From Octopus sinensis (taxonomy: Eukaryota), in contig NC_043012.1 of the NCBI RefSeq assembly GCF_006345805.1, positions 39,184,001 to 39,248,000 on the forward strand: a stretch of DNA of 64,000 bases, read 5' to 3'. The notes under the pieces were generated by a model, which searched no databases, was not told the origin of the DNA, and saw nothing but the letters and a program-made list of their open reading frames with translations. Shown piece by piece: positions 3,308 to 62,655 of this stretch (position 1 is its first letter; every line of letters begins with the position of its first letter). A program made the translations under genes and the position numbers.

Positions 3308-4426
3308 TCGATTCTAGTGGCGTGGAGAAATCGATTTCTTCTCTCTCCGTACTCAACATTATTTGAAACGACAGATGGTGCCCCACACACACACACACTC
3401 AGGAATCTTTCTAAATGTGTTTGCTCTTGTTCTTTGAGTTATATCTCTACTATCTAACAGCGTTCCAGCAATGACTATCCCATTTTTCATAAACACACAA
3501 GCACACACACACACACACACACACACACCACACACACACACACACACACATACACACACACACATAAATACATATACATAAATGAGAGCGTTCGCGCGTG
3601 TGACTGCGGTTATTGTCCATTTCAGAGAAAATTGGATGATTCCAATGTTTTCAATAGTTTGCAATGTTTCAGTAGGTCTCCAATTGATCAGGAATTTTGC
3701 CAAAAACTAAACGTGTTAGCCAATCATTACTGGAAAGATCACTGTTTGGCTTCTACATGATTGTCGAACTCAACTAGCCCTAACCCTAACCCTAACCCAA
3801 CAAGATGGAAAAGCGTATTTTTCACAGTCCTGCAGTTCTCATTTAATGAACTGCCAGATCACACCTTCAACATTTGGCATTCATTTCCTTGTAAATTATC
3901 TCCGACTTACTGACTTTCAATGAGGACCGATTTTCTTATTTACCTATTTTCCTTACCAATGACCAAGATTTATCGTAATCAAACATTGTGCAGTGGTCAT
4001 AAGAGTAAGCCTTTACTACGCGACTTTCCGTTACCAGTGTCAGCCAAATCATTCATTTACGTGGATAATGTATTTGAGAAAATATTACAGTTTCTTCTTC
4101 CGTAAATCTGAAATCATATTAAATGTCGTATTTCGTAATTTTCACACATTTCCGAATTGTTTTCTTTCGTACTTTTAACGCATTTCTGTAATATTTAATG
4201 CGTAGCTGGATCATCACAGATAACTTTCTAGTTGTTATGTTATATAACCCCAAGTCAGCTGTGGTCGAGGATATTTATGGCAGGTAGAGAGTCAGTTGAG
4301 TGGGTACAGATGTCATGGAGAGTAAAGGAAAATTAGAGGGAGGTTTCTGTTGCTAATTGAATCGAGTCGAGCGATAAACCGCCTCGATTAAGAAATCAAC
4401 TACAGCTACTACCGACATTACGCCTG

Positions 4427-4466
<40 letters not shown>

Positions 4467-4922
4467 CTCTGCTACTACTAGTACGCTGGAAGATCCCACG
4501 ACAATTTTATCAAGTCGACCGTTAATACTATGGATTGAGAAAAATAATTGTATTACCGCTACTATTAATGCTGATACTGTTGTTGCAATTATTACCACCA
4601 GCAGCAGCACTACCACCACCACCAGTAGTAGTAGTAGTAGTAGTAGTAGGGAAGATTTCACGATATATATGTAATAGCCCAGATGCAGCTCGTTTAATCG
4701 TTTAAAAAGTTCTTGGTTTCTCCTGTAAAATGTCTTTTAATTTCCAAATCTCGTTTTCACGTCGAAACGATTTCCATTCTCAAAAGAATTTGTATAGAAC
4801 GGACAGCATTTATATTTTGGTTTGGAGTCTGAAACTAGCAAGATAAAGGGTTGATATTCTTGATAACTGTTCGTCTGATATTAATGCTCGCAGCAAATGA
4901 ATGGGTTCGGCTAATGACTTAC

Positions 4923-4927
<5 letters not shown>

Positions 4928-4989
<62 letters not shown>
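4928..4989. repeat. (AG)n microsatellite
   Basis: Direct reading. Confidence 0.95.
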
Positions 4990-4991
<2 letters not shown>

Positions 4992-5684
4992 GTGGTAAAC
5001 AAACGAAAGATTAAATCCATCACCAATTCAGAGCCTGTCAAACAATTTCTGTTGAGCAAGATTTACACGTAAGACTTTGATTGACTTGAGGCTGTTATGA
5101 AGAACAAATGAACGATGCATCGTGCAATGGAGTCGAACCCTGTTCTAAATGAATGCGAGACCACTTCCATTAACATTCTACCAAGCTCCAGCAGAAGAAT
5201 GTAACACGCAGTGGTCGGTTTCTTTCTTCAAAGTTATTAGAACTAAATATAATGAAACATATCGCAATATTATCGACCTCTCACATATTCTCAATGCAAA
5301 TTTATGTAATGAAGAGCAACAACCAATGGAATTATTACAGTATATTGCTGAAATACAGAATTGTTTTATAGAATTCCAAGCGATGAACTGCTAAATCGAC
5401 TCCAGCGGATATTAACTTTGACTGAACAGACAAAAAGAAATAAAAATGAATAACGAGAGAGATATTTATTGATTTTACGTCACAAAAACGATAAATATTG
5501 ACAATTGTTTGATCTTTTGTGAACGGAGATATCATTGGACGAGGGAACCTATTGATCTTTGCACAGAAAATCTGGTGTCTATTCCCAACAATAAGACGAA
5601 CTCTTTTAGAATAACAGCTACTGTCTTAAAAGGCAGTGAATTCCACAGCCGTGTGTTGATGTCACATTGTTCTCTCCACTGACA

Positions 5685-5992
5685 AACAGCCACTCCGTCG
5701 GTTACGAGGACGAGGGATCCATTTGATACGATCAATGGAACAGCCTGCTCGTGAAATTATCGTGCAAGTGGCTGAGGCTTCCACAGACACGCGTGCGCTT
5801 AATGGAGTTCACAGAAAGTGTCAGCGTGACAAAGAATATGACGAGACTGGTCCCTATGTATTACAGGTACAACTAACTTTTGCCAGTTGAGTGAACCGGA
5901 GCAACGTGAAATAACGTGTCTTGCTCAAGGGCACAACGTGCCGCCAGGTATCAAGCTCACCACCTTGAGTCACTAAACCATTCGCCTTCACT
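5685..5992 (-). mobile_element. SINE family 3 (CCTTGAGCAAGACAC...TATTTCAC..TGCTCC.GTTCACTCA core)
   Basis: Minus strand GTGCCCTTGAGCAAGACACGTTATTTCACGTTGCTCCGGTTCACTCAACTG matches the core at ~62180-62230 (+); decayed tRNA-like head. Confidence 0.6.
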
Positions 5993-6098
5993 CCATTGAC
6001 AACCATCAACGTTGCCTCTATATGCCCCCCACCCGCCTTTATCTGCTAATGATAGCTGCTAAATCATTCTCTCTTGAAATAGGCAGAAAACATTCGAC

Positions 6099-6230
6099 GA
6101 TATGTTACTAGATGTGCCATCGCTCTTAATACGGCACCAGATGTGCCATTCTTGATAATATGGTAGCAGATATATTATCCCTGATAATAAGGTATCAAAC
6201 GCATTATTGCTCCTAATATGGTACCAAAGG
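6099..6230. repeat. Diverged ~29-bp minisatellite (ATATGGTACCAGATGTGCCATT-like, 4-5 units)
   Basis: Recurrent AATATGGTA/CAGATGTGCCAT at ~29-bp spacing. Confidence 0.55.
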
Positions 6231-9200
6231 TAGAATTCTTGACATTAAGATAGGAAAGACACAATTAGATTGTTTTAGTTCTTATCTCGATCAGATGTGA
6301 ACTTAAGTCAAAAACAAATTATGAAATTATTTACAGATGTGAAAATAGTCTCTCAAATAACCATCATTTATCATTTCTAATACAAGTCTTTTGTATATTT
6401 AAGGATATAGTCTAAATATTGATGTCTTATATTAATACAATGCCAAACCTCGTGTGCCTCACTGGTTGGCTCGGTTATTTTAAGTTCAGAAATAAAGTTA
6501 ATATTTGGGAATCTGCTAACGCCGATTGTCTCTAGGCACTGGTTGAGAAAGCGAATTGCCAATCAAGATGATATATTTATTAATCATGTTGCCTTTTTCT
6601 CTCTTTAATGCCAATAAAGCAGAGATAGCGATATCGACAACATTTGATCTGGCAAACATACAATGGTGGCGCCTAATATCATTTTTTCACCAATTTTCCA
6701 ACGAAAGGTGAATACTCAGTCTTGTCAGATTAACTCCATCCAAACCGAGCGCCTAAAAAGACTGGTGACATCAGTTTAGACAGAGATATTTGTGCAAATA
6801 TTATTGGCCTAACATTCAAGAGCTTATACATTACACGGTGTTTTGAGCAGAATTCTTTGATTAGAAATCAAGCGAACGATGAGGGAAGCCTGTTGTTGCT
6901 GACATTTACCGTAACAGCACTAAATGACAGTTGTAGAGATTTAGTGTAACATCGTTATGTGCGTTGTACATCCAACTATTGTTCTGTTAAAGGAACCTGG
7001 AAAAAAAACTAATTGAATTACATGATACCTTCCCTTTTCAGTTATAAAGAAAGGGAATACTTAGACTGTGAATTTCGGATCCAGATCTGTTTGCAATTAA
7101 AGAAATGGCCTATTTGACATGTTGCTCTGGGTGAATAAGTGACGAATGAATTTTTGGAATAAGCTTGTTGTTTGATGATACAGCATGCCTGGATTGCACA
7201 CTTCCGATTTGATCAACACCTGTTGAGTGCTCTCAAGGTAAAGTAGACGTACTTCATTTTACTTTTAACTTACTTCTATTATTTGTTATTCAATAGTTTT
7301 TTTGTTGTCTCTTTTTGTAAGCATCATTTGTAAAAGCGCGGCGGGAATCCATCAATTTGTTGATCTAACGACATTTGGTGTAATTTGTACTAAGATGTCG
7401 AGCAAAACCTTTGGAATCCTAACCATACAGTCTTGACTTCAAACAGTACATAGAAACCTGAACTGAGATTACATAGCTACAACATGACCGTAACAGCTTT
7501 GGCTGTAACAAACTAAATCACAAATAACCACATAAGAAAAAGATATATTATCGAGGAAGTATATTTTTCTGAAGGCAGAAGAGAGTAATTTGAGGAAGAT
7601 TTGGACGCTATTTCTAGCATGCGATTTGAACACGTAGACATTGCCTGTGTGGCTAGTTTTTCAGATAGATACTTCAATATAAGTTGCATTAATAACGATA
7701 TTTTAAGGCCGATGTTTCGATATTAAAGCTATCGATTTTCTTACATAAACTCTCCTGTTCTTTTTTTTTCTCCCTTTGCTGTAACGTTTGGGGTGTCAGA
7801 AACACATGAATAATTTTCCTGTATAAAACATTTATGAATAACGCAATTTCTTTGGCATCATAGCAGAACATTCCGACATTTAGATATTTCTTTAAACATT
7901 TCAGTGCTGTGAGTGATAGCAAACGGTTGACATGAACACTAGCAGCCATTTTCTCTCGTCTAAAGAAGTTTACGATGCATTTTAATCCGTTCACATCAAC
8001 CAAAATGTCCTTCTCCGGTTACTCGACATAATAATTATGATCAACAAGGAACCATTATTGGGTCATCAATCTTCTTCTCTCTGAGAGAGGCTGCAATTTT
8101 ATTTCAAATTAGATTTTTAATTCTTAGAATATCGTGTTTTCATTAGATTTTAACAATTTTGAAATTGCTTTTTAACTGAACGCCATTTTATAACTTCGAT
8201 TGATGGATTAAAGTTACTTTGCTGCTCAAATTCACCATTTCAGGTTCAGGGACTTTCATCTTGTTTTCTTTTTTCCTTTTATAGCCTCAACTCTTTACAA
8301 ATCATCATATTACCAGCTTCTTTCTGTCTCTCTGTCTTTTGTTCCTGCTTCTGGTCACTAAGACAATCAGCAGAGCGGCAGACGACATGACATGTGACAG
8401 CGGGGCTGCGTGTCTTTTCTTTATGTTTTTAAATACAGCTGAGAAGGGTCTTGTTTTTCATTTGGCATTGGTCGATACCAGTCATGTACTGAGGTCAAAC
8501 ACCCCTTTCTAAAATATGTAGAACTCCACCTCTGCTACATTCTTTCTTCTGGTAAGGTGAATGGGAAGCTTCAGCTTGAAGACTCGAGATAATTCACCAA
8601 CTTTAATTATTATATCGTTCTCTGTAGTGGCTATGGTGGCGATGGTGGTGACGCTGGTCGTGGTGGTCATGGTGGTCGTGGTGGTAGTCGTGTTGAAAGC
8701 TGGGGTGGCGGAGGAGATATTTCCCAGCACCCTTTCATACTTCAGTTTTCACAATTTACGAAATGTGACACTCGCGAATCGGAAATTCCTATTTCCGACC
8801 ATTCGAAATTACTTCATTAATATTCTATCAACTGATTCTGTCTGCGATTCTTCCTACAGAGGTGTCTCAGAAAGTCTCAAGGCCACACATTTTCGGGTAG
8901 GACACAGTCTGTGAGCATGAGTCCAACATTTTCATTCAATAAATCTTCTTAAATCTGGAAGAATGATTTCAAATCACTACTTCCTTCAAGAGTGACTTTA
9001 ACAATCATTCTCTCTCACTCTCTCTATCTCTATATATATCTCTATCTCTCTATCTATCTCTTTCTTTCTCTTTCTCTCTGTCCCTTATCCCCCCTCTCTC
9101 TCTCTCTCATTCTTTCTTTACCTCTCTCTACATTTCTCTCGCTCTTTCTCTTTCTCTGTTTTCTCCTTCACTCTCACCCTCTCTACCGCTCTTTCTCCTG

Positions 9201-9231
9201 CTCTCTCTCACACTTTCTTTCTCTTTCTCGC

Positions 9232-9277
<46 letters not shown>

Positions 9278-9949
9278 ACAAGCACAAACACATGTATACA
9301 CACACTTTTACTCACACGCATCTCTGGTGACAAAAGTATAATTAGTCAGTGATATTTATGTCTAATCATCTCCCTAGCAACAATCGTCTAATATCGATTG
9401 GAAGGCATAAAAAGAGAATGCACATTTCCCCTTCATATTTACTACATATTTCAAATTTAAAATGCTAAAACGACTCCCGTGCTCTTCTGAATTGGAGGAA
9501 GTGAGGCGGGTAGAAAAAGGGTGGCTGATGCTGCTGTCATCATGAATTACACTTAACTCAGCTGTAAGATGTAATAGTTCGCTGATTGAAGATGCATATG
9601 ATAAATGATGTGACAATTCAGCCGTGACCATCCCGTCACATACCAGATTACGTTATCTAAGGTTCTTCCGCTGTGTGCTGGTATGGCTACTGAGATAATA
9701 GCAAGTGGAAACTCAGTAGAGTGCGTCCATCATCGGATCAGACGCAAGCGAATGTACGGAAGGCTTAGATATCATAGGATGTACTTTCGTACGATGTGAA
9801 CAGTCAGGGCTTCAGATATTTGCAGGGCCATTGCTGGGTGTAAACAGTTCTGTTGGGGATAGAAACAAAAGGCTCGTTCCCTCAACAAATGGGAAAGTTT
9901 CGAGACCTGAGACAAAGGATCACTTTGACTAAAAATGTCTTTTCAATTT

Positions 9950-10146
9950 TATCTTTTATTTGTCTCAGTTATTGGACCTCGGCCATGCTGGGGTGCTGCC
10001 CTGAAGGCTACTTTTTTAAAGGCAAGTGCTTATGCTATCGCTCTCCTTTTGCCGATCGGCTAAGTTACGGGGACGTAAAACACACCAACATTGGTTGTCA
10101 AGTGGTGGTAGGGGCCAAACAGACACAAAGACACACATACACACAC
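9950..10146 (-). mobile_element. 3' half of long SINE family 2 (partner of the 5' half at 13087-13249)
   Basis: Matches 34820-35030: GGCCATGCTGG tail, CTTTTGCCGA..GCTAAGTTACGGGGACGTAAA, GGTTGTCAAG, then the internal CA/TA microsatellite. Confidence 0.8.
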
Positions 10147-10151
10147 ATATA

Positions 10152-10203
<52 letters not shown>

Positions 10204-10396
10204 TATATACTAAGTAATTAAGGGTTTAGCAACGAATTGCCTCACCACACACCGAATTTAGAAATAGCAGTCAAAGAGTTATAGCTATTCTTTCTACTAA
10301 AAGGGAGATCTCAGTAAAAACACAGCACTTGAAAGGCAAACACAGACAGGTAAGAGAGAATGAAATGACGGCAATCTATCATACAATTTTAAGTCA

Positions 10397-10487
10397 CCTA
10401 CGGACGTACGTTTCGAAATTAAGTTTTAGGAAAGCATAAGAATTAGATAATCATGTCTTACCCAACTTATTTTCTCATCAGCGTAGG
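10397..10487 (-). ncRNA. Type I hammerhead ribozyme (A1)
   Basis: Minus strand: CCUACG-CUGAUGA-GAAAAUAAGUU...AACUUAAUUUC-GAAA-CGUACG-UC-CGUAGG. Perfect 6-bp stem I, full core, long stem II, palindromic stem III (ACGUACGU), GUC site; predicted cut between 10403 and 10402. Confidence 0.9.
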
Positions 10488-10979
10488 ACACTACAACTAT
10501 GAATAATTGTATATTAAATTTCGAGATACTAGAAGGCATCATCTCAACTCAGTATCAGAGCGAGCTAAAGCCGTTACCAGTATCACCAAATTCAAAATGT
10601 GAATGAAAGTTTGTGTCACCAACCCCTTCCCACCCGCGTGTAGCCAAGACAAGATGCTGTGGTCATTTACTGGAATGAAATATGGCTATCAGTAACAATA
10701 TAGGGTGAAATTAATTAATTTGGAATAATCATTAATTACACCAAGTGGATCTCGGCATGTAAAAGCCTCATTCGAGGAAAGTTTAAGTAATACTAAGTAA
10801 TTAAGGGTTTAGCAACGAATTGCCTCACCACACACCGAATTTAGAAATAGCAGTCAAAGAGTTATAGCTATTCTTTCTACTAAAAGGGAGATCTCAGTAA
10901 AAACACAGCACTTGAAAGGCAAACACAGACAGGTAAGAGAGAATGAAATGACGGCAATCTATCATACAATTTTAAGTCA

Positions 10980-11070
10980 CCTACGGACGTACGTTTCGAA
11001 ATTAAGTTTTAGGAAAGCATAAGAATTAGATAATCATGTCTTACCCAACTTCTTTTCTCATCAGCGTAGA
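10980..11070 (-). ncRNA. Type I hammerhead ribozyme (A2)
   Basis: Same motif 583 nt away; stem I UCUACG/CGUAGG keeps pairing through U-G; predicted cut between 10986 and 10985. Confidence 0.88.
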
Positions 11071-11126
11071 ACACTACAATTATGAATAATTGTATATTAA
11101 ATTTCGAGATACTAGAAGGCATCATC

Positions 11127-11422
11127 TGCAACAGCTTGGGTTTCAGAGGACCACAGCTCTTTAACATCCTCCCTAAATGCCTGAGAGACTTACATGGTGT
11201 GGATGTGGGTTTCTTTAAAACTAAACTGGATCTCTTCTTGTTGTGAGTCCCAGATGAACCTACCTCACGACAGGAGACGCGGATGCGGGCAGCAGCATCG
11301 AACTCCCTTGTTGATCAACTGCCACGTATCAGAGGTGGATTCACAAATTAGTGTAGCTCGTTCAGCGGTGGTGCCCCAGCATGGCCGCGGCCTTCGGGCT
11401 AAAACATTTTTAAGGATTTAGG
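11127..11422 (+). mobile_element. 3' end of a CR1-group LINE (ORF2 C-terminus and 3' UTR)
   Basis: Manual translation from 11127: CNSLGFRGPQLFNILPKCLRDLHGVDVGFFKTKLDLFLL*VPDEP...AASNSLVDQL, typical of the post-RT end of invertebrate CR1-like ORF2. Confidence 0.7.
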
Positions 11423-11499
<77 letters not shown>

Positions 11500-11504
11500 A
11501 TACA

Positions 11505-11576
<72 letters not shown>
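11423..11576. repeat. (TA)n microsatellite
   Basis: Direct reading; lies between the CR1 fragment and element B. Confidence 0.95.
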
Positions 11577-11578
<2 letters not shown>

Positions 11579-11846
11579 AAAAAGGGGGTCGAATTAATTA
11601 ATTGTTAATAAATTCGACCAAGCAGTATTCGGTATGTAAAGACCATTTACGGTATATTTGAAGTATTAATTTATAAAAATATGTAAAGTAAAAGAATTCA
11701 CTTTACCACACACCGAACTTTTCAGAAATAGCAGCCAAAAATTTGACTATTTCTTCAACTGCAAATAAAAGTCTCCAGACATGCATACTCAGAAAAATAA
11801 CTCACATAGGTATAAGGGAAAATGAAAGATCACATCCATACGATAC

Positions 11847-11906
11847 CCGAGGACAGTCTGTTTCTGGATTTGTGGGTAAAACGCCACTTTTCCTTCATCA
11901 GCTCAG
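11847..11906 (-). ncRNA. Type I hammerhead ribozyme (B1)
   Basis: Minus strand: CUGAG-CUGAUGA-aGGAaaaGUGGcguuuuacCCACaaaUCCa-GAAA-CAGACUG-UC-CUCGG. Stem I CUGAG/CUCGG, quasi-palindromic stem III ACAG-A-CUGU, GUC site (cut 11852/11851); first pair of stem II is an A.A mismatch. Confidence 0.8.
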
Positions 11907-12402
11907 AGATTTCTTCTGATTTAGATTTGAAAATACTAAGAATCAAACATACCCGTCCGATATCTGTAACATCGGACAAACCATGCCAGACACCCAGTAC
12001 TAGCGAATCCAAAAATACGAATGAGATCTATTATTCTCCCTGTCCACCCACGTGAGTCATAGAGCATTACATTTCTACAGAGGTAAAAACTGCAGTTCAA
12101 ATTCTTGGAGAGAAAGCATTATATTTTATCAAAAAGGGGGTCGAATTATTAATTGTTAATAAATTCGACCAAGCAGTATTCGGTATGTAAAGACCATTTA
12201 CGGTATATTTGAAGTATTAATTATAAAAATATGGTTAAAGTAAAAGAATTCACTTTACCACACACCGAAACTTCAGAAATAGCAGCCAAAAATTGACATT
12301 TCTTCAACTGCAAATTAAAAGTCTCCAGACAATGCATACTCAGAAAAATAACTCACATAGGTATAGGGAAAACAAAATGAAAGATCACATCCATTACGAT
12401 AC

Positions 12403-12461
12403 CCGAGGAAGTCTGTTTCTGGATTTGTGGGTAAAACGCCACTTTTCCTTCATCAGCTCAG
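12403..12461 (-). ncRNA. Type I hammerhead ribozyme (B2), 1-nt deletion in stem III
   Basis: Same motif ~555 nt away; reads GAAACAGACUUC, lacking one G (mutation or assembly indel). Confidence 0.65.
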
Positions 12462-13002
12462 AGATTTCTTCTGATTTAGATTTGAAAATACTAAGAATCA
12501 AACATACCCGTCCGATATCTGTAACATCGGACAAACCATGCCAGACACCCAGTACTAGCGAATCCAAAAATACGAATGAGATCTATTATTCTCCCTGTCC
12601 ACCACGTGAGTCATAGAGCATTACATTTCTACAGAGGTAAAAACTGCAGTTCAAATTCTTGGAGAGAAAGCATTATATTGTTATCAAAAAAGGGGGTCGA
12701 ATTAATTAATTGTTAATAAATTCGACCAAGCAGTATTCGGTATGTAACCATTTACGGTATATTTGAAGTATTAATTATAAAAATATGGTAAAGTAAAAGA
12801 ATTCACTTTACCACACACCGAACTTTTCAGAAATAGCAGCCAAAATTTGGCTATTTCTTCAACTGCAAATAAAAGTCTCCAGACAATGCATACTCAGAAA
12901 AATAACTCACATAGGTATAAGGGAAAAACAATGAAAGATCACATCCATCTGGAGACTTTTATTTGCAGTTGAAGAAATAGCCAAATTTTTGGCTGCTATT
13001 TC

Positions 13003-13076
<74 letters not shown>

Positions 13077-13086
13077 CATATGCATA

Positions 13087-13249
13087 TGACGGGTTTGCTT
13101 CAGTTTCCATCAACCGAATCCGCTAACAAGGCTTTAGACGGCCCGGGATCATAGCAGAAGACACTTACTCAAGTAGAGATGCAGTGAGACTTAAACTGGA
13201 TCCAGGCGGTTGGGAAGCAAGCTTCTTACCGCACAGCCACGCCTGCGCC
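13087..13249 (-). mobile_element. 5' half (tRNA-like head) of long SINE family 2
   Basis: Minus strand GGCGCAGGCGTGGCTGTGCGGTAAGAAGCTTGCTTCCCAACC...GGAAACTGAAG; homologous to 35147-35310 and 53262-53426. Confidence 0.8.
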
Positions 13250-14103
13250 TTTATCCAAAGAATAAATATAGGAATTCAGTTGTAAAGTTGAGCGGAGAAC
13301 GTTGTGGTACAGATCGATTACCCATTTGTTACATTGAGCCATCTACACAGAAAACAATTAACGACATCTACAGCTGTCAGCCAATCAGATTTGAGAAACG
13401 TTCATGTCAAGGAGAAGCTAATATGCTTCCCGCCAATTATGTCATTCACTTATGAAAATATCAAATATGACAAATTGACTAAAATGATCTTACCCCACTT
13501 CAACTATTGTTCTTCTCAAGATTCTTACAAAGAACAGAAATTGTTATTATTATTATTATTATTACTATTATTTTTATTATTATTGTTGTTGTTGTTTTTG
13601 TTGTCATCATTATCATCATCATTATTACCATTATCGTCAGCATAATTATCAACATCATCATTATCATCGTTATTATTTGTTATGTTTTTTTATTATTTTT
13701 ATTTCTATTATCTTTAAACTAATTTCTATTATTATAAAATTTTATTATCCCATTGTCATCTTCATAATTGTTTCATTCCTAAAATTTCAGACTTGTTTGT
13801 GCTTTAACGTAAAATAATTCATGTGGCCATATTTCTTGAAACTTTAAGCGGCGATGCCTTGAAATTGGGTCCAGCGATCGTTAGACATAATTGCCCCAGA
13901 AATATGTCATCCATTAGCAAATTATAGGTTCTGTTGATTTATTACATGGAATCTTTTCGTTCAACAACGTCGTTATTAGCATCTTCGTCATCATCGGCGT
14001 CATCATTAACATCGTCGTCGTCGTCGTCTTCAACTTATTTACACGATAATCATTATTATTGTTGATGTTGTTGTTGTTGTTGATGATGATGTTATTATTA
14101 TTA

Positions 14104-14712
14104 AGGCGACGAGCTGGCAGAATCGTTAGCACGGCGGACAAAATGCTTAGCAGCATTTCATCTGTCTGAGTTCAAATGCCGTCGAAGTCGATTTTGTCTT
14201 TCATCGTTTCGGGTTTTACTGACGTAGGTTCCAGATAAGAACTTGAGTCGGTGTAATTAACATTTCAGGTGTTGTGCAGGTAGCAGTAAAGATTATTATT
14301 GTTGACATTGTGGTTGTTGTTGCTGCTATTGTTGTCGTAATCAAGGCGGCGAGCTTGCAGAATCGTTAGCGGACAAAAGGATCTTGAATTCAGATATTGC
14401 CATATTCAACTTCACCTTTCATCTTTTTCGGGGTCGAGAACAAGATGTAACATTAACGTACTAGGGTCGATGTAATTGATTTTACCCTCCGCCCCTAATA
14501 TCAGGCTTTTTGCCAGAAGTCGAAAAATGAGAACCGTTAACTCGCCAGATGAAATACTTAACGGCATTTTGTCTGTCTACGTTTTGAGTTCAAATGCTAC
14601 CGAGGCCGTCCTCGCCTTTCATTCTTTCGGTATTGATAAAATAAGTTCGAGTTGAGCATTGGTGTTGATATAATCGACATTCCATTCCCGCCTGTAGTTA
14701 AAAGAATTGTTA
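14104..14712 (+). mobile_element. Three head-to-tail diverged SINE family 1 copies (~14104, ~14344, ~14530)
   Basis: Repeated GGCG.CGAGCT.GCAGAATCGTTAGC heads and CTTTCATC.TTTCGG cores. Confidence 0.75.
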
Positions 14713-16127
14713 TTATGTCATTTTCATGAAGTTCTCTTCTTTCAATTCTATGGCCTTTCTTCTTTCTATTCGGCATTAGCTTAGATGCATCATATACATA
14801 TATACATACATACATACATATATATATATATAATATATATATATATATAGCAAAGGGATTTGCTACCCGTCGGACTATCTAGAGTGTACCAAACGCCGTG
14901 TGATGTACACAACATGAGATTTCGGCCAGCCTCTGGGCGTTAAATACTCCTACCGGTGGATTTTTTTCTGTGTGCACAACCTAAATATCTCACAGGATTT
15001 ACGAAGCAAATGGATCGGACTGAGAATGGTGCTTACAGGTTAAATGAACCCAACTTGGTGCACACCATTTAAGTACCCGGTATTTTCCACAATCCTATAT
15101 ATATATATTGATACATATATATTTATCAATTTACTTATTTGTAGATAACCATTAGAATGTTACCTGTTACTTATTAATAATCTAATATCTATAATGTGTT
15201 CATCAAACGGAGAAATATAAAAATAATAATAATAAATCTATAACAACAACAACAATAATAACAATAATAATAATAATATCAATAATAATGATAATAATAT
15301 CAATAACAATAAGAAGACTATCAATGATAATAATATTAATAATTGTAATGATGAGAATGATGAGGAGGAGAAGGAGGTGAAGGATGGGGATGATGACGAT
15401 GATGATGATGGTGATGTTGATAGCAATAATTCTACTCAATACATAATGAAAACAGAAATAATAATTAATTATATAGATATTAATAATAATTGTAGTAGCA
15501 GTTGTTTTTGTTCTTGTTGTTGTAATAGTAACAACAACAACAACAACAACAACAACATAAAAATAATAAACCAGACACTTAAGGTTATATTTAATATATT
15601 GTCTACAACAACAACAGCAAAAACCAACACAGCCAGATCTGTCCAGATTTTTAAATCAATTCTAAATTAAATAACTGCCTTGAGATTATCGTCCTCCTGA
15701 AGATTTCAATAAAATATTCTGAAAAATTGACATCTTAATAAATTTGTTCATATTTATTTAGTTATTTCCAAAGTTTCTATGGATCGTTGTTGTTTCCCCT
15801 TTTTCCCTTTCCTTCCATACTTCATTCTCCAACATGCTTTTCTCTTCGTTTTTCTCTCATATTAATGTATATGTGTTTATTTTTACGCCTGTTTCTATTT
15901 CACTATAGAATTTTGGTTAACCATTTCCGTTATCTTTTATAGCTTGTGTCACTCACAAAAACAAAAGATTCTTTCTTTCTTTCTTTCTTTCTTTCTTGAG
16001 TTTAATTAAAAACAACGACAAAAGAGAAATAAATAAATAATAATAATAAACTACTGAAAATTATTAAAGTTAAATTAAAAGAAACATTAAAATATGATGA
16101 TAGCGATGTCGATGGTGATGATGATAG

Positions 16128-16173
<46 letters not shown>

Positions 16174-17229
16174 AGTAACTCGACAATGGTGGTGGTAGTG
16201 TAGACGATGTAAGAATCTCGATAGTGACAATTTCGAAGAAAACGATAGTGGCACATATTTACTGCTGCTGCTCCTGATGATGAGGATGATGGTGACGATG
16301 ACGATCATGATATGATTGTGATGACGATGAGGATAATGGCGAGGGTGTATTTCATTCGTCAAGTGCCTTCAAGATGTTATAAAACTGAAACAAAAATAAA
16401 ATCATATGCACATAAAAAAAGAGGAAAAACAAGGAGTAGGGAGGGGAGGGGAGGAGGAGGAGACTTCGAAGGAAAAGAAGAAGAAGAAGAAGAAGAAGAA
16501 CCATTCACTTTTATTGCGCTTGTGATTTAGATTTAAATCTTTCTTTACTGATTTATAAGTTAATTAATAATCAGCGTGTTAATCTGAGTGTTTGTTAATC
16601 CTCGATATCTGATTTCTTAAAGGCCAACTGTCACTGGATCCATACCCAACATTCAATATGGCGTCCTTCTTCGGGAGAGAAATTTATTAATGACGAGCCA
16701 CAGAACAGCAGGATTAATACGTTAGTCGACTTAAAACAACAACAATTACAAGAAAGAGAGAGAAGCTGACTTGATGTGTCATCTTGTTTAACACCATGAC
16801 CCGCTTCGGCGAATGTCTCCTCGATGTAATATGCCACGACGCCATCACGAGACCTGCCTGAATCAAAGAATGGTAGAATCAGTACGTCGCCATGTTTGAC
16901 ACAGTTATTGCCTTCAACCAAGGAAGGAGCCTCTGTGTTGTCACTCGGATTGCTATAAACCTCAACCGGACCTATAGCACACATATTACATAATTTCATA
17001 GTAAATAGTCGTTTGGTGGAATATCAGTAATCATCCGTCTGCTCGATCAGGGATGGCCTGGGGCTAAACCGCAACAATAGTAATACCGAGAAGTCGACCA
17101 AGAAATAATAAGGGCTTTCGAAATAGAGTAGAGGGGGATGCAAGGAAATCAAAATATATTTCTGCAGGTTTTCATCTCTGTGGGTTTCATTGTTGTAGTT
17201 TATTCTTTAGCTCCAATTTAGGTCATATT

Positions 17230-17900
17230 GAACAGACTTATGATCAAAGACATTTTATGGATTCCAACCATCTTCTTCTCCCATAATTCCTGGGAGCATT
17301 GTAGGAATAGAGTCTCTCAGCCCCTCTTGCATAAGAAACAACAGTCATTAGCCTTTCCGGCAGGTTTCTCAAGCGTGACGAATCGAGACTATGGAGATTC
17401 TCCAACCATTTCGTTACTGGTGTATATGTAAGTCTCCTGCGAGTTTCTTGGTCTTGAAGAATCCGTCTTGCGATTTTTTCCTGCGATAATTCCCATTGTA
17501 TGTCCGTAGTATCGGAGCTGTGATTTCTCAATGCAGAAAAGAAGCGTCTCGACCTGGACTGACTCCCTAATCTCCCTTTTACTTCCTCTGCGTAGTAGTG
17601 TTACTCCCGAGGCCCTTCTGAATAACCCCATATAGGCCATTTGTATTACCAAACTATCTTGGCCATAGGTGAACATAGGTTATGATACGCACAAAAAGCC
17701 TAATTTAAATAACGAGTTAGCCCTTTTCTTTTTGATCAAATCTTTCCTCTTCTCAGGATCAGATGCAGGGGATGGTGCATTTATGTGCTAGCACATATAG
17801 TTCTAGAATTCAATCCAACCTTCTGCCTTCTACCGTTCATGGCTACGGATATGTGATGCTTAAACTTATCCACTTGTCTCAGTGATTTTCAATTGAAAAT
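17230..17900 (-). mobile_element. Decayed RTE-clade LINE, RT C-terminal region
   Basis: ORF 17389..17676: MGLFRRASGVTLL...EIRESVQVETLLFCIEKSQLRYYGH fits the RTE pattern EMxFLRRIxGVT...IR..L.VE.....IE..QLRW.GH. Confidence 0.7.
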
Positions 17901-18499
17901 ATTGTGTCAATTAACTTGCGGCAGGCAGTGTACCATCAATCTTCAACTACCCATGCATAGTGTCCAGTAATTCCTAACTTCCTATCCACAGAGTCACATG
18001 CACTTTTAATTTCCTGTGCGCAGTGTACCAGTAACTCTTAGCTTTTCATCTTCAGTGTGCGAAAAATTGTTTTATTTCATTTCATGCGTGCCAAAAGTCA
18101 AAGAAATTGAAAATCACTGTCATAACATTTTTAAAATGGCAAGAATAAGAACTGCATATTTTCAAGTGAGTGTTCTAACAGTTGTTTGTCTTGGAGACAA
18201 TCCTCTTAACAGCCGATTTAAGCATTGCAACTCTTACACACTGGTGATCTCAAAGAATTAAATATTTTGCTTCCTTTGGGATATATAAACCGAAAATGTT
18301 AAAGATGAATTATTACCCCCTCACAGTATTAAAAGAATATCTATGAATGTTTGTGTATGGGACGAAAAGCTAACATTCGTGGTGAAAATGAAAACCTAAA
18401 TATTACACATACATGCATTCATACACCCTTGCATACGTACATACATATACATGCAGACATGCATGTATGTATACATACATATATGCGCGAAACATAAAT

Positions 18500-18776
18500 C
18501 TGCACATACATATATACATACATACATAGATACATACATACCTACAAACATACCTACATACATACATATATACATACATACATACATACATACATACATA
18601 CATACATACATACATACATACATACATACATACATACATACAGAAGTACCCTGTTGATGTTGAAATTCCAATGATAGATCCTTGGGTCTAAGTTAGAAAC
18701 CCGTTCTTCATTGCCAAGAAATATTGAAATATACATACATACATACATACATACATACATACATACATACCATACA

Positions 18777-18810
<34 letters not shown>

Positions 18811-18832
18811 CATACATACATACATACATACA

Positions 18833-18866
<34 letters not shown>

Positions 18867-18885
18867 CATACATACATACATACAT
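18500..18885. repeat. (CATA)n microsatellite blocks
   Basis: Direct reading; source of the YVCM/IHTY ORFs. Confidence 0.95.
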
Positions 18886-19287
18886 GGTTAAAAAGAACAA
18901 CAACGAAGTGATAGAGCAACAAGCAAGGTGTATTAGTTTGACGCTCATAGAAAATGAAAGGGTTCATTAATGTTTCGAGTCTAGGCTCTTCTACAGAAAG
19001 AATAGTTAAGGAGAAAAAAAGAATAGAGAAAAAAAACCCCGAGTCTGAATTAAACGGTCAACGCAGGCTGATATGACTGGAGGACAAAGACATTGGCTTG
19101 AGGAGGGGGTCGCAAGGGGGGACAGCTGTGGCCCGGCATGTGTGTACGTGTGTGTGTGCAAAGAGGTGAGCGTGTACGTGTGTGTGTGTGAAGCTAATGA
19201 GTGCGTGTGCATGTGTGTGCGTGTATGTATATGCATAAAAGACAATATTTGCGCGTGTGAGTTTGTGAATAGGTGTACGCGTGTACG

Positions 19288-19550
19288 AGTGTTTGAGGCT
19301 ATGTGACTTATGCGTGTGTTTGAGGCTATGTGACTTATGCGTGTGTGTGAGGCTATGTGACTTATGCGTGTGTTTGAGGCTATGAGACTTATGCGTGTGT
19401 TTGAGGCTATGTGACTTATGCGTGTGTGTGAGGCTATGTGACTTATGCGTGTGTTTGAGGCTATGAGACTTATGCGTGTGTTTGAGGCTATGAGACTTAT
19501 GCGTGTGTTTGAGGCTATGTGACTTATGCGTGTGTGTGAGGCTATGAGAC
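19288..19550. repeat. 27-bp minisatellite, 10 units (GAGGCTATGWGACTTATGCGTGTGTKT)
   Basis: GAGGCTATG starts at 19295, 19322, 19349 and so on to 19538, exactly every 27 bp. Confidence 0.95.
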
Positions 19551-20199
19551 GTGTTCGCGCGCGCGTGTGTGTGTATGTTTGTGTGTGTGTTTCTACGAGC
19601 GTGTGTGTATGAAGTTATTATATGTTTGGTTACTCTGTGCGTTGAGCATGTGTGCGTATGTGTGTTATTATTTCGTGATTATATGTTTGTGCCAGATACT
19701 ATGAGACATGTGTGTGTGTGAGTATGTGTGTGTGTGAGTATGTGTGTGTGTGAATACACATGTGTGTGCTTGTATATTGCTTCTTTATGCGTGTGACCCA
19801 GTGTGTGCCCCTTTGGCCAGCTAGTGCATGTGTACGAAGAACGAAGTATGTGTGTGTACATGAAGCTCATGTGGGCATGCATATATTCAGTATTTGTGCG
19901 TGTGTATATGCGTATTTGTGTGTGCATGTAACCTTGTATGTATGTGTGTGTGCGTGTGATTTGTTGGACGAAGTTCGGTTTTCCCTCATGGATACAGGTG
20001 TTTGGTAGAATAGAAGTGGCAAAAGTGGTAAGAGTTGAGCAGCGGTGGTGTAATTGTATACTTGCTGTTGCGCGTGTAAGGGTGGTGGTTGAGATGCAGG
20101 TGCCGGTACGTGTGAAGAGGGAAAACAAGAGGCTGTGCATGGGGAGATGCTAGTGAATGTGTGTGTGTGGAAGGTGGCGTGTTTGTAATGGCATGTTAA

Positions 20200-20665
20200 A
20201 TAACATGCAACATCATTTCTCCGGCTCTCGAATATGTTTTATAATTATCAAATGCACCATGCCACAGAAGCAGGAGAACCAACTCGTGGCTGTCGGACCA
20301 CATCACCCCTAATATCTGGCCACTTAACTGCCCAGACTGCAACCCCCTTGATTATTATGTGTGGGGCACAGTTGAGCGAGAGAACGTCAAAACTGCTTGT
20401 AACGCCAAAGATGAACTGAAAGCAAAGATTATGAGATCATTCCCCAACATAAACAAGAACAGCGTCCAGAAGAGTTGCCAGAGATTCCGAACTCGACTGG
20501 AGGTTATGGTTAAAGCCAAAGGCAATTTTATTGATTAAATTTTACTCTTTAGAATTTCCAGATATTTCATGTAATTTTGGTAAATATATCTGTTAAAATG
20601 AAATGCCAGTGTTATTTTCATTTTTGCGTAATTTAGACGACAATTTATTCACCGCCCCCCCTCTC

Positions 20666-20670
<5 letters not shown>
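20200..20670 (+). mobile_element. Tc1/mariner-superfamily transposase 3' fragment and right end
   Basis: Manual translation from 20317: WPLNCPDCNPLDYYVWGTVERENVKTACNAKDELKAKI...CQRFRTRLEVMVKAKGNFID* (WPPNSPDLNPLDY motif of maT/Tc1-like transposases); ends at CTG before (TA)n. Confidence 0.85.
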
Positions 20671-20711
<41 letters not shown>

Positions 20712-22079
20712 GATAAATAGGCAGATTAAAAGTAATTGAATATGTCACATTGACACTACGCTACACATTGCAATAAAGCTTGCATCGGGTTTCGCAGTCG
20801 ATTCATTAGCGTCTCATTGTCTTTCTGATATTCATTGTATTCAACACCGGGTTAAGAAAATTAAAGTTTCGTCGTGGGATTTGAGCTAAAAATGGAGAGG
20901 GATGTAACGAAAGGCCTCAAGGCATTAACTCCTGGCCTTCAATCGATAGTTCTATTCACGGGGCTTCAGATTGTATATAATTTAATAGGCAGCGCTGATG
21001 TGTCTTTCAAAGGGCAAATCTCGGAAGCGGGGAAGCATCTAAAAGATAGCTCCATTAGTCGTTCTTTGTTGCTCTGTGCGTTGCTTTTTGAAACACTTCA
21101 GCGGAATGATAATAAAGAATGATTCGAACCCACACATCGTGACTGAATATGTCATGCTATCCCTTCAAACTTCACTGCTGATGTACGTACAAATGAATTA
21201 TTGCCTTATATTGTCAATGGTTTATCGATCCGCTAACCTCATCCTAGTCTATGTCTTTTTCCCTTTCATTCTATTGCTCACAGCTATTACTACATTCTTC
21301 GATCGTTTTTTAGGGTCCTAGGTTAAAAGCACTCCACAGTGAGTAATGGATACATTTTACTCAAACACTGCCAGCTATAATTACGTTTCGTGTGTTCAAA
21401 TAGACACTGGTTTAAAACAGTATTTGACGTTTATCAATGAATTTGAAAACTTACTGATCCGGGCAGTTTTTGGCTTTTGTTAGATGAAAAGAGATTTAAA
21501 AGGAATCCAGCGTGGTGTTTCAAACAGCAAACCACGAACAAAACATTTAAATCAGCATTGTAGAATAACAAAGACCTCAATTAATTAAGTAATTAAAAAT
21601 CAATTACCTAATTAAATATAAAATAATTAAAGCATTATATAATATATTAATTGAATAAACAGCTGAATAATAAAATATAAGGCTTGTGAAAATCAATTAA
21701 TTAAAAATTTTCAAATGTAAGGAAAATGGTTTGGGGAATTATCGGCAATAATTATCCAATAAAAGAGATCGAAAGGAAAGTAGAATGATTGGAATTGGCG
21801 CGAAGAGTAAAGAAGCTAACGTTTCGGGACTTACTCTTCCTCTGAGTGTGAGAAAGTGAAATAGCGATTCAGTAGACTGTGGTATTGTCACTTGGATTCT
21901 ATGCCAGGGTGCAGATGCATATAGATACAAACACACACACACACACACACACATGCACACATACGCATACACACAAGCTTATAGATATATACATATGTTA
22001 CATATACCTATATATGCATCATATATACGTATATACATACATATACATATACACACATAACATAGATATAAAATGCGAT

Positions 22080-22992
22080 ATGGGTTCTCACGGGTAAGCT
22101 TTGGTTTTTCTATCCAGAGATTTTCAAACCAGGATTTACGTTCTATTATTTATAGCCTGATCTAAATCTATAGGGAATTAAACGTGCCAAACAATTAGAC
22201 ACAAAAACACTAAGAACAAAAAAACATAGCACCACACCTCAAACCAAAACATTACTTTTTATATCAACACACAACCCCAGAAACAGTGAGGCATTCAACA
22301 CTATTGTGCAAACTCTCCCTTTAGTAACTAGAGATCCAAAAATGAACGACATCCTGAAAACACACAAACTCATCAAATGCAAAAAACAAGACAAATCGCT
22401 AAAGAGACTACTAACAAATGCGAAGCTTTACAAAACAACCACGAAACCAACAGTTGAAAAATGTGGACGCCCGAACAGTGGCACCTGCCCCAACCTGCTT
22501 GACGGCTCGGATTTCCTTTTCAAACAAGGACAGATGTTCACAATTAAAACCAATTTTACCTGTGCCTCTGAGAACCTAATTTATGTAATAACCTGCTCGG
22601 GTTGCAGTCATTTTTACATTGGACAAACGAGTTTAACTTTGAGAAAGAGAATCACTCTGTATAAGGAGCAAATCCGTTTCCCGCAATACAGACAAATTCC
22701 TCTCGGTGAACACATAGAAAAATGTGCAGGTAACATCAAGCCAAATTTCACAGTCTTCCCTTTCTACCAGTGCAAAGACGCAATTTCTCAACAAGAACGC
22801 TTAAATAAAGAAACTTTTTTCATTGAAAAACACAAAACACGTCTTAATAGGCACGCATAACCAACTTTTATATTTTTACATATCACATCACTGTATATAA
22901 ATCCCCCTTCTAAACAAGGTCCCTTTTTTAAAACCTGTCTCTTTTCTGAAATTCATTGCATGCCCAACGCCGGAAGTCACCGCACGCCACTG

Positions 22993-31260: not shown

Positions 31261-31479
31261 CAGATAATCTTATTTTAGCTACTGAACATACCGCCCCCTA
31301 CACCTCACCGGTTCGTACGCATCTTAATGAACGTTTAGAAGAGGTCCCACTATACATGGTTTATATTATTTTCGTCCGTAGTTGCCTTTTAGAATGCGTT
31401 ATGGCACAATTTCTTAAATCTTTTGCTCTCTGTCCATTTCACTGAATGATATCTCTATTGATATATATATATAATATAT

Positions 31480-31512
<33 letters not shown>

Positions 31513-31728
31513 TATATGGTATTTAAGTAGACAAATGAATTATCTTATTACGGATAATTCGAAGATAACCGATACCTGGGTAGCAAACTCACAACAGAAA
31601 AAGCACGGTTGAAGTTACGACCATAGGGCATAAAATCCGTGCCTTAGTGCGGAAATTTGAAGTTTAATTTAATATATTAAGTATAGGAAAGAATGGAGCT
31701 GAACGAAGATTTAACAAAGTTCCTTTTT

Positions 31729-31814
31729 TATTTCGACATATGTTTCGAAGTCTGCAAAATCCCTAATTCCGAATGAATAAGGAGTCAATTATGCAGCTTT
31801 CTCTTCAGGGAAAA
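31729..31814 (-). ncRNA. Type I hammerhead ribozyme in PLE 3' region (weak stem I)
   Basis: Minus strand: UUUUCC-CUGAAGA-GAAAGCUGCA...UGCAGACUUC-GAAA-CAUAUG-UC-GAAAUA; palindromic stem III ACAUAUGU and GUC site. Confidence 0.75.
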
Positions 31815-32365
31815 CCAGGAACTTAATTCTCCAACAAAATGCACAAGTTTTTCGATGACTGCTCACTAGGAGCCCATAGAGATAATGATAAATATTGTCT
31901 ATTTATAGGGGGTGACGCCAGATTGGTTGAAAGTAGGAGAAAATGTCAGTTAAAATAGGGTTCAATCAGGGTTGGTGAAGGAAGGTAAAGGAAAACTAAA
32001 GTGAGGGAATGTATTCTCTATGACTGGTGTTTATATTTGATTTATTTTATGAATGAGTGCTCGTATGTATGTGTGTGTAAATTTGCCTTAATGTGTGTGT
32101 GTGTGTCTGTGACTGAGTGAATGTATGTGTAGAAGGCAGAGAAAAAGAATTAACGGTCAAGAGGTGAAAAGACTGTGTCTGTGTGTTCGAATGTGTCAAC
32201 TTAAGAGGGAGAGGGTAGAAAGAGCCACAATAGTAATGACAAGAGACAAGGTTACTGCTGGAATTGGTAGTGTTCTTAGCAATTATGAGAAAGTCTTATA
32301 GACTAAAGGGATGAGAAATCACAAATTAATTTAATAGGAAGTCCAGGGGTTATCTATATTAGACT

Positions 32366-32857
32366 TCATTGGTATGAGTGAAAGGTATGATTTTTCCAGT
32401 GAAGGCATCTGAAAGATCGTTCGACAATCGAATTTATTACTTGGCCTCGAGCAAACAGAATATGAAAGAGTTCGGAATTACAGAGGGCACAGATTTTTCT
32501 GCCCTTATCAAACGGTAAGGACACTGATAATATTGACCATTCCAGCTTAAAAGTTGAATTTGCGTTCTTCAAACGCCAGATTAATTTGCTTAGCCCCGTG
32601 GCGTGCTGTTTACTGTTATCACGAAACGTGGAAAAATGATTTGATATCCTTGTGGCTAATTTCGAGGAGGTTGCCCCTATATAGAGGTAGACATCGGATC
32701 CAGTAGAAATTTTGCACTGGTAAGTGGTGTTTCTAATTTTGGAGTTATATGATAGGAACCCTAATCTATTGGGATTAGTTTCCGATACTAATACAGCGTT
32801 CTTATTTCTATGATGGGTGTAAAAATTACTGCTGGATTTGGGCACAATACTATTCAT
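32366..32857 (-). CDS. PLE GIY-YIG endonuclease (partial ORF)
   Basis: TTYQCKI...YIGATSSKLATRISNHFSTFR...TGLSKLIWRLK...WSIL...CALCNSE...CLH. Confidence 0.85.
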   Translation of the reverse strand: MNSIVPKSSSNFYTHHRNKNAVLVSETNPNRLGFLSYNSKIRNTTYQCKISTGSDVYLYIGATSSKLATRISNHFSTFRDNSKQHATGLSKLIWRLKNANSTFKLEWSILSVSLPFDKGRKICALCNSELFHILFARGQVINSIVERSFRCLHWKNHTFHSYQ

Positions 32858-33140
32858 CCTATTTTCATTACTATTTAAGGCAATATCACCTGCACATTCC
32901 CTGTTTCTGGGAATGCTGTGATTGTTATTGTCCGTAAAGCTACTGTTGTTAAAAACGCGGCTACTATTATTGCTGAGACCCCCTCCGTTAATGACCAGGC
33001 CAGTGCTCTTATCCTTATTACTATTAATAACGCGTTATTGGACTCCTTATTCATTCGGAATTAGGGATTTTGCAGACTTCGAAACATGTCGAAAATAAAA
33101 TAAAGGAACTTTGTTAAATCTTCGTTCAGCTCCATTCTTT

Positions 33141-45273: not shown

Positions 45274-45999
45274 GGCAATTTGAAAACGTTATGAAAAAAT
45301 ACCGTTAAAAATGAAGGAAATTACTCTGTTATAACTCTGCTTTGCCTGCGTACTTAACATCGCTCGCATTTTTCGTCATAAAAATTATATAAAAATACAT
45401 AAAAATATATAAAAATATATAAAAATATATAAAATCTTCTGGGACATAACACAGAAAGCATGTTCTATCCGTTTTCTTTAGGGGACCAAAAACGTAACAG
45501 AATTTAGTCACATGTGGGCATGATCCGAAAAGCTCTGTCCTTGTATTTAGACATGTGGTAGGGTCTAAGCTGCTTTTCCAGATAAGCCATCTCTCCATGT
45601 CGCATAAACCGCACCTTCCGCTGCCGTTAGTATAGGGCTTACATCTGGCCAAAATCTTCCATTGTATGTTATAATCGACACCTTTATCTCTAAAGACCAA
45701 ATAGATTGGATAATTGTGTCGCTTTTCTTTTGTTCCAGTGCCTAAAGCTCAAAGTGTGGTTATTGAACCTGGCCTTGAAATTACCCTCTGTCAGGCCCAC
45801 GTATTTCTTCGTCGAAACGGTGTCTTTAGTGGTTATAGAGTTTACGGTAGCTTCATATATGATGGTCTTGGACATGCAAGCTCCATTTAGCGGGCACAAT
45901 TCTTTATTCCTGCATGAACAGCTGTTTTCTTCTTGTGTTTTTTGTATGTTATGATTGATTATGTTTTTAAAATTGGTAGTTGAACTAAAACTAATTTTT

Positions 46000-46642
46000 A
46001 AATTGTGTCTATTAAAGAGTTTCCTATAAGCATGGTTAACTGGAAAATGTCTATCTATCAGTGCTAGGAAATTTTACCTATATTGAAGGCCACCTCGGGT
46101 GAGTAAGGGGGCGTAAACCAGATGACCTTCCTATTTCTATTATTCCTTTTCCTTATTGTTGGGCTGGTGATAGGTGTATTTTATTTTTTCGCTAAAACCA
46201 CTATCTTTTAAAGCTTTATTATAAACTGGGGCAACGCTATTGAAGATGTCCTCATTAGATGAGAGGCTAGAAATCCTCTTACTAATATTTTTAACTAAAT
46301 TTTTGAATACTATAGGGGGATGGCATGAACCTACATTAATATAACTTAGTCTATCATTGGGCTTCCTATAAGGCTTATAAATATTATTATTAAGATCTAA
46401 GGAACGTCTAAGAAATTGACAACCGTCAGGTTAGTGTCTATAGTTATACTAAGTCCGAAGTGTTTCATTAACTGGATAATATCCTTCCTAAAACGATCTT
46501 GTGCTGGTCCATTTGTATTAGCTGTTAAGGCGAGGGCATCATCTTTGTAGATGGCGAAATGTACGTTAGGGAATGTCTTACCGAAGGTATCTAGGAGAAA
46601 GAGTCCAATTAGATCACAGATGCCTGCCCCATCATATGAACC
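46000..46642 (-). pseudogene. PLE reverse transcriptase fragment (frameshifted)
   Basis: Manual translation: GSYDGAGICDLIGLFLLDTFGKTFPNVHFAIYKDDALAL...VVNFLDV...YKPYRKPNDRLSYINVGSCHPP. Confidence 0.85.
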
Positions 46643-46828
46643 AATTCGATATTGTTGATTTTTATGCCTCTATCTCTAAAGAACTGCTAGATAAAGCCCT
46701 AATCTTCGCTAGTGACTTCATAGAAATTAGTACCAATGATAAGGATATAATCTTCCATGCTAGAAAGACATTACTTTTCAGTGAGAATGCAAAGTGGGTA
46801 AAAAACACCGACACGGAGGGCGCTTTCG

Positions 46829-62430: not shown

Positions 62431-62655
62431 TATTCTTTTTTCCCACACTCATTTCTCTTTTAATCAATTGCTTAACACCGTTACCAAACACCGAAGCAGC
62501 AATTAAGAAAAAAAAAAACTTTCACGTGTTTCATCAACGCTAACTGGAATTATTTGTATGAAGAGATCTAAGAACAACATACTCAGAGACTTTGTTCCGT
62601 TTCACGTTCTGAAGACAAATTCCTCTGCAGTCGACTTTATTTTACATCCTTTCCG

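Follow-up and report, generated by a model that had tools for sequence, protein, structure and literature searches.

A conserved, covarying RNA domain in hammerhead retrozymes of Octopus sinensis and its likely role in starting reverse transcription by a Penelope-like enzyme

Two adjacent insertions in a 64,000-nt stretch of the Octopus sinensis genome (contig NC_043012.1, positions 39,184,001–39,248,000; hereafter the window) are distant, collinear members of one lineage of hammerhead retrozymes. The best-conserved and most constrained part of this lineage is an RNA domain of ~180 nt, which is likely (we put the probability at about 0.7) the place where a borrowed Penelope-like element (PLE) reverse transcriptase binds and starts, setting two internal start points, here called sites 1 and 2. 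The common lineage of the two elements, A and B, and the particular constraint on the domain follow from the collinearity of their units and from comparison with shuffles, in which the domain scores z = 9.3 between A and B, compared with 2.2–2.9 for each other segment (with rough segment borders in B). Each insertion has an end in a TA tract, and their features, with the helices of the domain numbered P0–P5, are as follows.

10147–10206: (TA)n target tract at the 3′ end of A
10207–11128, minus strand: element A, ~1.6 tandem units of 583 nt, 5′-truncated; its 3′ end is site 1, in the TA tract
10207–10298, minus strand: terminal, incomplete domain of A, with P1, the 5′ strand of P2 and hairpin P3, ending 16 nt past ACC (site 1)
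10397–10487, minus strand: hammerhead copy 1 of A, type I with a long stem II; cut predicted from the core consensus between 10403 and 10402
10703–10881, minus strand: complete conserved domain of A, helices P0–P5, model score 168.8 bits
10752–10760, minus strand: 3′ strand of P2 in A, RNA ACAUGCCGA
10830–10838, minus strand: 5′ strand of P2 in A, RNA UCGGUGUGU
10980–11070, minus strand: hammerhead copy 2 of A, type I
11417–11576: (TA)n target tract at the 3′ end of B
11575–12948, minus strand: main arm of element B, ~2.5 tandem units of 551–557 nt; its 3′ end is site 2, in the TA tract
11585–11762, minus strand: terminal complete domain of B, 169 bits, with the end 10–12 nt past the P5-closing ACC (site 2)
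11846–11907, minus strand: hammerhead copy 1 of B, type I
12137–12311, minus strand: domain copy 2 of B, 147 bits
12402–12462, minus strand: hammerhead copy 2 of B, cleavage triplet one base shorter
12693–12866, minus strand: domain copy 3 of B, 170.3 bits
12949–13003, plus strand: inverted second arm of B, stopping directly past GCTATTTCT in a TA tract, before site 1 and thus shorter than the usual site-1 end

A type I hammerhead in each unit, tandem units, dispersed copies and a non-coding sequence (no frame of at least 120 aa on the RNA strand of the A and B units) match both to animal non-LTR retrozymes. Stem I of the hammerhead covaries between subfamilies. In Rfam 15, no family matched A or B at its gathering score, the hammerhead models being also below threshold, and the 29 weak matches were nearly all to TA repeats. 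Contigs from sequencing runs that we presume to be RNA span A and parts of B, although such contigs carry no information on strand, ends or level, and contigs matching A also occur in runs under three further organism labels. A very abundant repeat (11129–11416) lies directly against the 5′ end of A, with no TA tract, in the place expected for a second arm.

The initial annotation had described two short blocks common to A and B. The shared motif is real: the 13-mer ACCACACACCGAA occurs exactly at 10244, 10827, 11705, 12257 and 12810 (chance expectation 0.06; a further match with one mismatch, at 62483, is unrelated), and TCGG(C/T)ATGTAAA occurs at 10752, 11629 and 12180. It is also larger than two blocks, as the shared part is the whole ~180-nt domain, including a terminal hairpin and an outer helix, and the spacer that had been given as 2–5 nt is 6 nt in B (CTTTTC). 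Because the type I hammerheads sit on the minus strand, this strand is the functional one; the TCGG(C/T)ATGTAAA block, rightly described as complementary to its partner, therefore lies 3′ of it in the RNA rather than upstream. On the minus strand the motif helix is 9 bp long and perfect with G–U pairs, whereas A–C mismatches are needed on the plus strand, and the motif therefore belongs to the RNA of the hammerhead strand, 3′ of the predicted cut. The separation from the ribozyme had been put at ~140–150 nt, close to the 147–159 nt between the predicted cleavage site and the far end of the ACCACACACC block. The units themselves had been regarded as otherwise dissimilar RNAs of a superfamily; A and B instead align end to end via intermediate subfamilies, as one lineage.

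This lineage is large. Three non-overlapping variants of the motif pattern, that of the initial annotation and two with one helix base changed, gave 2258, 6579 and 8032 exact matches genome-wide, or 16,869 copies counted as units rather than insertions, compared with 0, 0 and 4 for the respective reversed patterns; the 3′ half of the motif alone matched 9687 times. The 55 complete copies fall into 15 clusters at 90% identity that are 62–89% alike over about 200 nt. There are at least 15 subfamilies, and more distant ones may be missed by the search patterns. A tree was built from 21 representatives, and whole units of six arrays could be aligned end to end. The hammerhead, where present, is located 112–135 nt upstream of GCUAUUUCU (43 distinct cases).

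Several neighbouring observations concern retrozymes of this genome more widely. In subfamily G (L117, L122), the hammerhead core is UUGACAA, not CUGANGA, and is like the pLTR cores of two autonomous Neptune-like families. Other hammerhead repeats have no copy of the domain (L042:510 and 1044; L058:96; L094:7985; L099:3791), and the genome therefore contains several separate retrozyme lineages. Inside a B-type unit (L098:1350–6850; G000:C1:62929500–62938500) we found a two-ORF LINE of about 5.3 kb, with frames of 589 and 1131 aa, bordered by a 17–18-nt duplication of retrozyme sequence; a frame like that of this LINE lies 359 nt upstream of a C-type copy (L006), and the LINE possibly targets these retrozymes.

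From an alignment of 27 copies, we drew a predicted fold in which an outer helix, P0 (AGUAG/CUACU), would close a junction with P1 (AGAAAUAGC/GCUAUUUCU, with an invariant GCUAUUUCU strand) and P2 (UCGGURUGU/ACAURCCGA). P2 would in turn close a second junction with two hairpins, P3, closed by GGY/RCC, and P4. The predicted hairpin P5, closed by GGU/ACC, would come after P0. Single-sequence folds recovered P2 and P5 in most of ten representatives. The RNA strand was the more stable by energy in 9 of the 10 and by z-score in 7; the opposite strand folded equally well by z-score in 3.

The evidence for covariation depends on the alignment. Copies of the unfitted alignment had been chosen with patterns that fix P2; there, RNAalifold proposed 16 pairs, placed only P2 correctly and found zero double changes; a double change was seen in 6 pairs, which is at chance level (reached in 300 of 500 shuffles), with 25 double-change cells compared with 13.4 in shuffles. 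In the model-fitted alignment of 89 distinct rows, which leans toward the model and whose copies are not independent events, 92.5% of cells were paired, 129 double-change cells were present compared with 39.5 in shuffles, and 15 of 44 pairs showed a double change, a number reached in 14 of 500 shuffles. The GCUAUUUCU strand shows hardly any covariation.

An unbiased read-out of P2 was obtained from copies chosen by their 5′ strand only, of which 53 of 103 instances have the 3′ strand. Among these 53 copies, pair 3 is G–C in 28, A–U in 23, G–U in 1 and A–C in 1, and pair 9 is U–A in 28, C–G in 18 and unpaired in 7. Over the first eight pairs there are 387 Watson–Crick pairs, 33 G–U, 3 A–C and 1 other, and the wobble changes fit only the RNA strand, that of the hammerhead. 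In the closing helix of P3, the third pair is U–A in 139 of 215 copies, C–G in 51, U–G in 11 and other in 14. Subfamilies J and M, both found without the search patterns, show double compensatory changes in the central helix: J was recovered by the covariance model after the patterns had missed it, and M, a rare subfamily of 4 copies first seen as a weak model match, has a P2 of CCAGCRUGG/CCAUGCUGG, with four of nine pairs rewritten on both sides and the layout kept. M also has one changed P0 pair and a P5 that is nearly all rewritten. The clear double changes stem from a handful of lineage events, and the counts given here are of copies rather than events. Together, copy counts and compensatory changes support the initial proposal of a conserved cis-element, here found to covary, as the defining feature of a large family.

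Insertions run into (TA)n at one of two points, ~100 nt apart and for the most part 8–22 nt 3′ of a hairpin closed by GGY/RCC. In a first set of 68 instances, 9 continue into a next unit and 59 are terminal, with 37 at site 1, 18 at site 2 and 4 between; 54 of the 59 run into TA. With subfamily J added (103 instances), 40 end at site 1, 26 at site 2 and 12 are unclassified, while 25 run on. Ends lie 8–22 nt past the closing RCC in 66 of 82 cases at site 1 and 56 of 65 at site 2, positions that TA-like letters at the junctions blur by several bases; six ends at +27–35 belong to copies with an extra AU hairpin inserted after P3. Of 21 arm pairs of two-armed insertions, 14 have one arm at each site and 7 include an arm that is unclassified; in none are the two arms alike. 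The window contains both kinds of end, A stopping at site 1 and the main arm of B at site 2. As in PLE-mobilised elements, the second arm is inverted and 5′-truncated, only one arm carries the tail, and the targets are (TA)n. The suggestion that the motif serves in recognition or priming by a reverse transcriptase gains support from this, since the 3′ ends of insertions fall at two fixed points in the domain.

In the mechanism that we propose, a PLE reverse transcriptase-endonuclease would cut the (TA)n tract, and the two DNA ends would prime on the RNA at a dozen or so unpaired AU-rich bases 3′ of P3 (site 1) and P5 (site 2). The PLE ‘tail’ would be the ~100 nt that separate the sites, and the two cDNAs would be joined back to back. 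As P2 encloses site 1 in its loop, a copy made from this site would have lost half of the domain and should be unable to restart unless tandem or circularised. Copying from site 1 leaves out both P5 and the 3′ strand of P2, yet these parts are conserved, a pattern that would be expected of a binding structure. The footprint equals the two-ended layout of PLEs, and by this analogy there is good support for a PLE protein as the mobilising enzyme. From the coincidence of constraint with end points we infer that this protein binds the folded domain and has its starts set by P3 and P5. Tandem or circular forms would then be the sole copies that can be mobilised again, which would tie the hammerhead and circle cycle to the PLE mechanism.

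Some other likenesses were considered and set aside. A telomerase template had been suggested by a telomeric ACCC stretch (AACCCU), but its ACC forms the 3′ side of the helix that closes P3 and becomes GCC, with a changed partner, in 51 of 215 copies. The telomeric-repeat reading known for EN-minus PLEs does not agree with insertions in (TA)n, and a likeness to the hairpin-ribozyme consensus was discarded, as the loop motifs are not conserved across subfamilies.

The domain might instead be a structured RNA that serves a different stage of the life cycle (circle formation by a host ligase, RNA stability, export or help in hammerhead folding), with insertions ending there only because AU-rich linkers are accessible for priming by a TA tract. 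The constant spacing to the hammerhead would agree with this, as would the location of both ends in AU-rich single strands with TA-like junction letters and the absence of the domain from all of the autonomous elements examined. The units have other AU-rich stretches, however, yet few ends fall elsewhere (4 of 59; 12 of 78 unclassified); with the same kind of hairpin before both sites and arms that pair one site with the other, we consider this explanation decidedly unlikely. A role of the sequence as DNA, either as a recognition site for the PLE endonuclease or as a cDNA hairpin resolved into two ends, is very improbable, given that the non-Watson–Crick pairs are G–U on the RNA strand (33, compared with 3 A–C) and would be mismatches on first-strand cDNA, and that G–U intermediates connect the double changes. 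It does have precedents: the tail of the Drosophila virilis element is needed for recognition of DNA by the endonuclease, as cited in PMC11167929, and the tail is attributed to endonuclease resolution in the relevant part of PMC8557442. P5 is, furthermore, nearly palindromic and folds on either strand.

Could the domain be a second self-cleaving ribozyme, or a processing signal, with sites 1 and 2 as the 3′ ends of the RNA it produces? Its several helices and invariant bases would be in keeping with one, but the Rfam result given above, the lack of conservation of the letters at the two ends and the scatter of the ends over ~15 nt, unlike a cleavage site, leave this scarcely plausible. We give as little credence to an internal promoter whose Pol III boxes or Pol II elements would be conserved as DNA; the point of departure for this is the GTTCG of subfamilies B, C, D and J, resembling part of the Pol III B box (GTTCR). 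Its G is missing in A, E, G, H and I, so that the B-box-like GTTCR is confined to some subfamilies and does not amount to a Pol III promoter; subfamily M rewrites the block yet keeps the pairing, and a site acting as DNA would show no covariation with a partner at a distance of 70 nt. The promoter that the initial annotation had offered as an alternative thus finds no support. Outside the domain, a CACG(T/C)G block (10635–10640 and 12049–12054 in the window) is present in all six aligned units, 60–90 nt after the tail, and is a better promoter candidate than the domain; CACGT also stands ahead of the ATG in two autonomous families.

If the domain is where a borrowed PLE reverse transcriptase docks, an autonomous partner could carry it too. 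PLE remains in the window include the following.

22174–22860, plus strand: truncated Neptune-like PLE endonuclease fragment
45329–47264: truncated Nematis-like PLE endonuclease fragments, an inverted pair

On the protein side, these Neptune-like and Nematis-like fragments, two young intact Neptune-like families and five further seeds were used. Protein or family searches, with flanks scanned by the model or an HMM, found no autonomous PLE with the domain at its own 3′ end in about eleven groups, among the best 150 of 3,500–21,700 candidates in each genome search; since each search scored the best 150, a partner gene may exist unseen among lower-ranked candidates. On the RNA side, no PLE coding end was found upstream of the motif in 231 instances, 124 of which have more than 350 nt of uninterrupted upstream sequence. 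The initial annotation had held that absence of the motif from autonomous elements would speak against its proposal; the motif is indeed absent from the 3′ ends of the PLE groups examined, in a search far from exhaustive.

Domain-model matches near PLEs proved, in the loci inspected, to belong to insertions of their own, with TA or other sequence between them and the PLE, and those at L306, L328, L364, L427 and L274 were set aside by strand or position alone. An N-terminal reverse-transcriptase-like fragment 410 nt upstream of a copy (L237/L282) was judged a decayed neighbour. Several autonomous PLE groups of this genome show two ends of their own, about 38–165 nt apart. Among them, a Nematis-like clade (window 31300–33100, minus strand; L325–L344; L480–L504) has a long-stem hammerhead and its own conserved block of ~165 nt spanning its two 3′ ends, which are about 165 nt apart; the conserved blocks persist across families that are 72–96% alike in the endonuclease. 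This clade, whose enzyme is available, lends itself to the same kind of structure analysis. Several young PLE families also have intact frames, of 775–782 aa (L261, L265, L093, L462), at least two young families having a separate upstream ORF1 (479 aa in L261). A further young PLE family (L405–L413) with Naiad-like reverse transcriptase motifs nevertheless has a C-terminal GIY-YIG domain, frames of up to 1120 aa and, near its 3′ end, a hammerhead-like core in unusual order.

Read jointly, these observations would offer the first comparative structure of an RNA element by which a telomerase-related Penelope reverse transcriptase is positioned. Each of the two like hairpins of the domain would dock one subunit of a dimeric enzyme and start it at a fixed unpaired distance, and the lineage would have kept the domain through many rounds of diversification without a sequence-related autonomous element, parasitising PLE proteins by shape alone. 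We regard this fuller account as speculative and rather unlikely. For experiments on the binding and starting role itself, the thousands of copies of this non-coding family, with their compensatory changes, provide a specific fold with named helices to mutate, and the natural variants J, M and H are ready controls.

Proteins of non-LTR retrotransposons recognise structures in the 3′ part of RNA, such as the R2 3′ UTR and the 3′ stem-loops shared by LINEs and SINEs. The octopus domain would resemble these in lying, as a structured cis-element, close to where reverse transcription begins, and in giving a non-coding RNA access to the enzyme of another element. Unlike them, it has two internal starts, not one that is 3′-terminal, and no sequence in common with a known autonomous partner.

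Animal non-LTR retrozymes, as presented in the portions of the two accounts drawn on here, are non-coding tandem units, each with a type I hammerhead and dispersed in many copies, and have been proposed to be non-autonomous derivatives of PLEs (PMC7229834; bioRxiv 10.64898/2026.07.22.740005). The A/B family matches this description and is set apart by units of 550–600 nt. A structured domain besides the hammerhead and a mapping of insertion ends, both given here, are not described in those portions. Xenopus retrozyme families match known pLTRs, as far as the same material goes, whereas no matching autonomous pLTR was found here.

The closest mechanistic parallel is with PLEs themselves, whose usual layout, according to the sections of PMC8557442 consulted, has inverted 5′-truncated arms with a tail at one end. 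The purified PLE protein of Anolis (Poseidon) cuts AT-rich DNA and extends both strands; its two start sites are internal to the RNA and mark the limits of the tail, and RNA 3′ of them is needed, a requirement mapped by truncation only in this one in vitro study (PMC11167929). To judge from the relevant passages on PLE tails, the octopus retrozymes share two 3′ ends downstream of a hammerhead, AT-rich targets, an inverted 5′-truncated second arm and a tail on one arm. On the same footing, their tail is ~100 nt long rather than 30–40 nt, and their start sites are AU-rich linkers after two like hairpins rather than one AC-rich stem-loop (PMC8557442, PMC11167929). The tail is non-coding here and inside the ORF in Anolis Poseidon, and the fold here, unlike that of Poseidon, is backed by covariation over many subfamilies (PMC11167929). 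Our literature search found no account of the domain, supplements aside; Fig. S1–S2 of PMC11167929, on the RNA fold of the Anolis element, may bear on its novelty. What is new in the octopus lineage is a covarying fold common to many subfamilies, together with the placement of both insertion ends after like hairpins.
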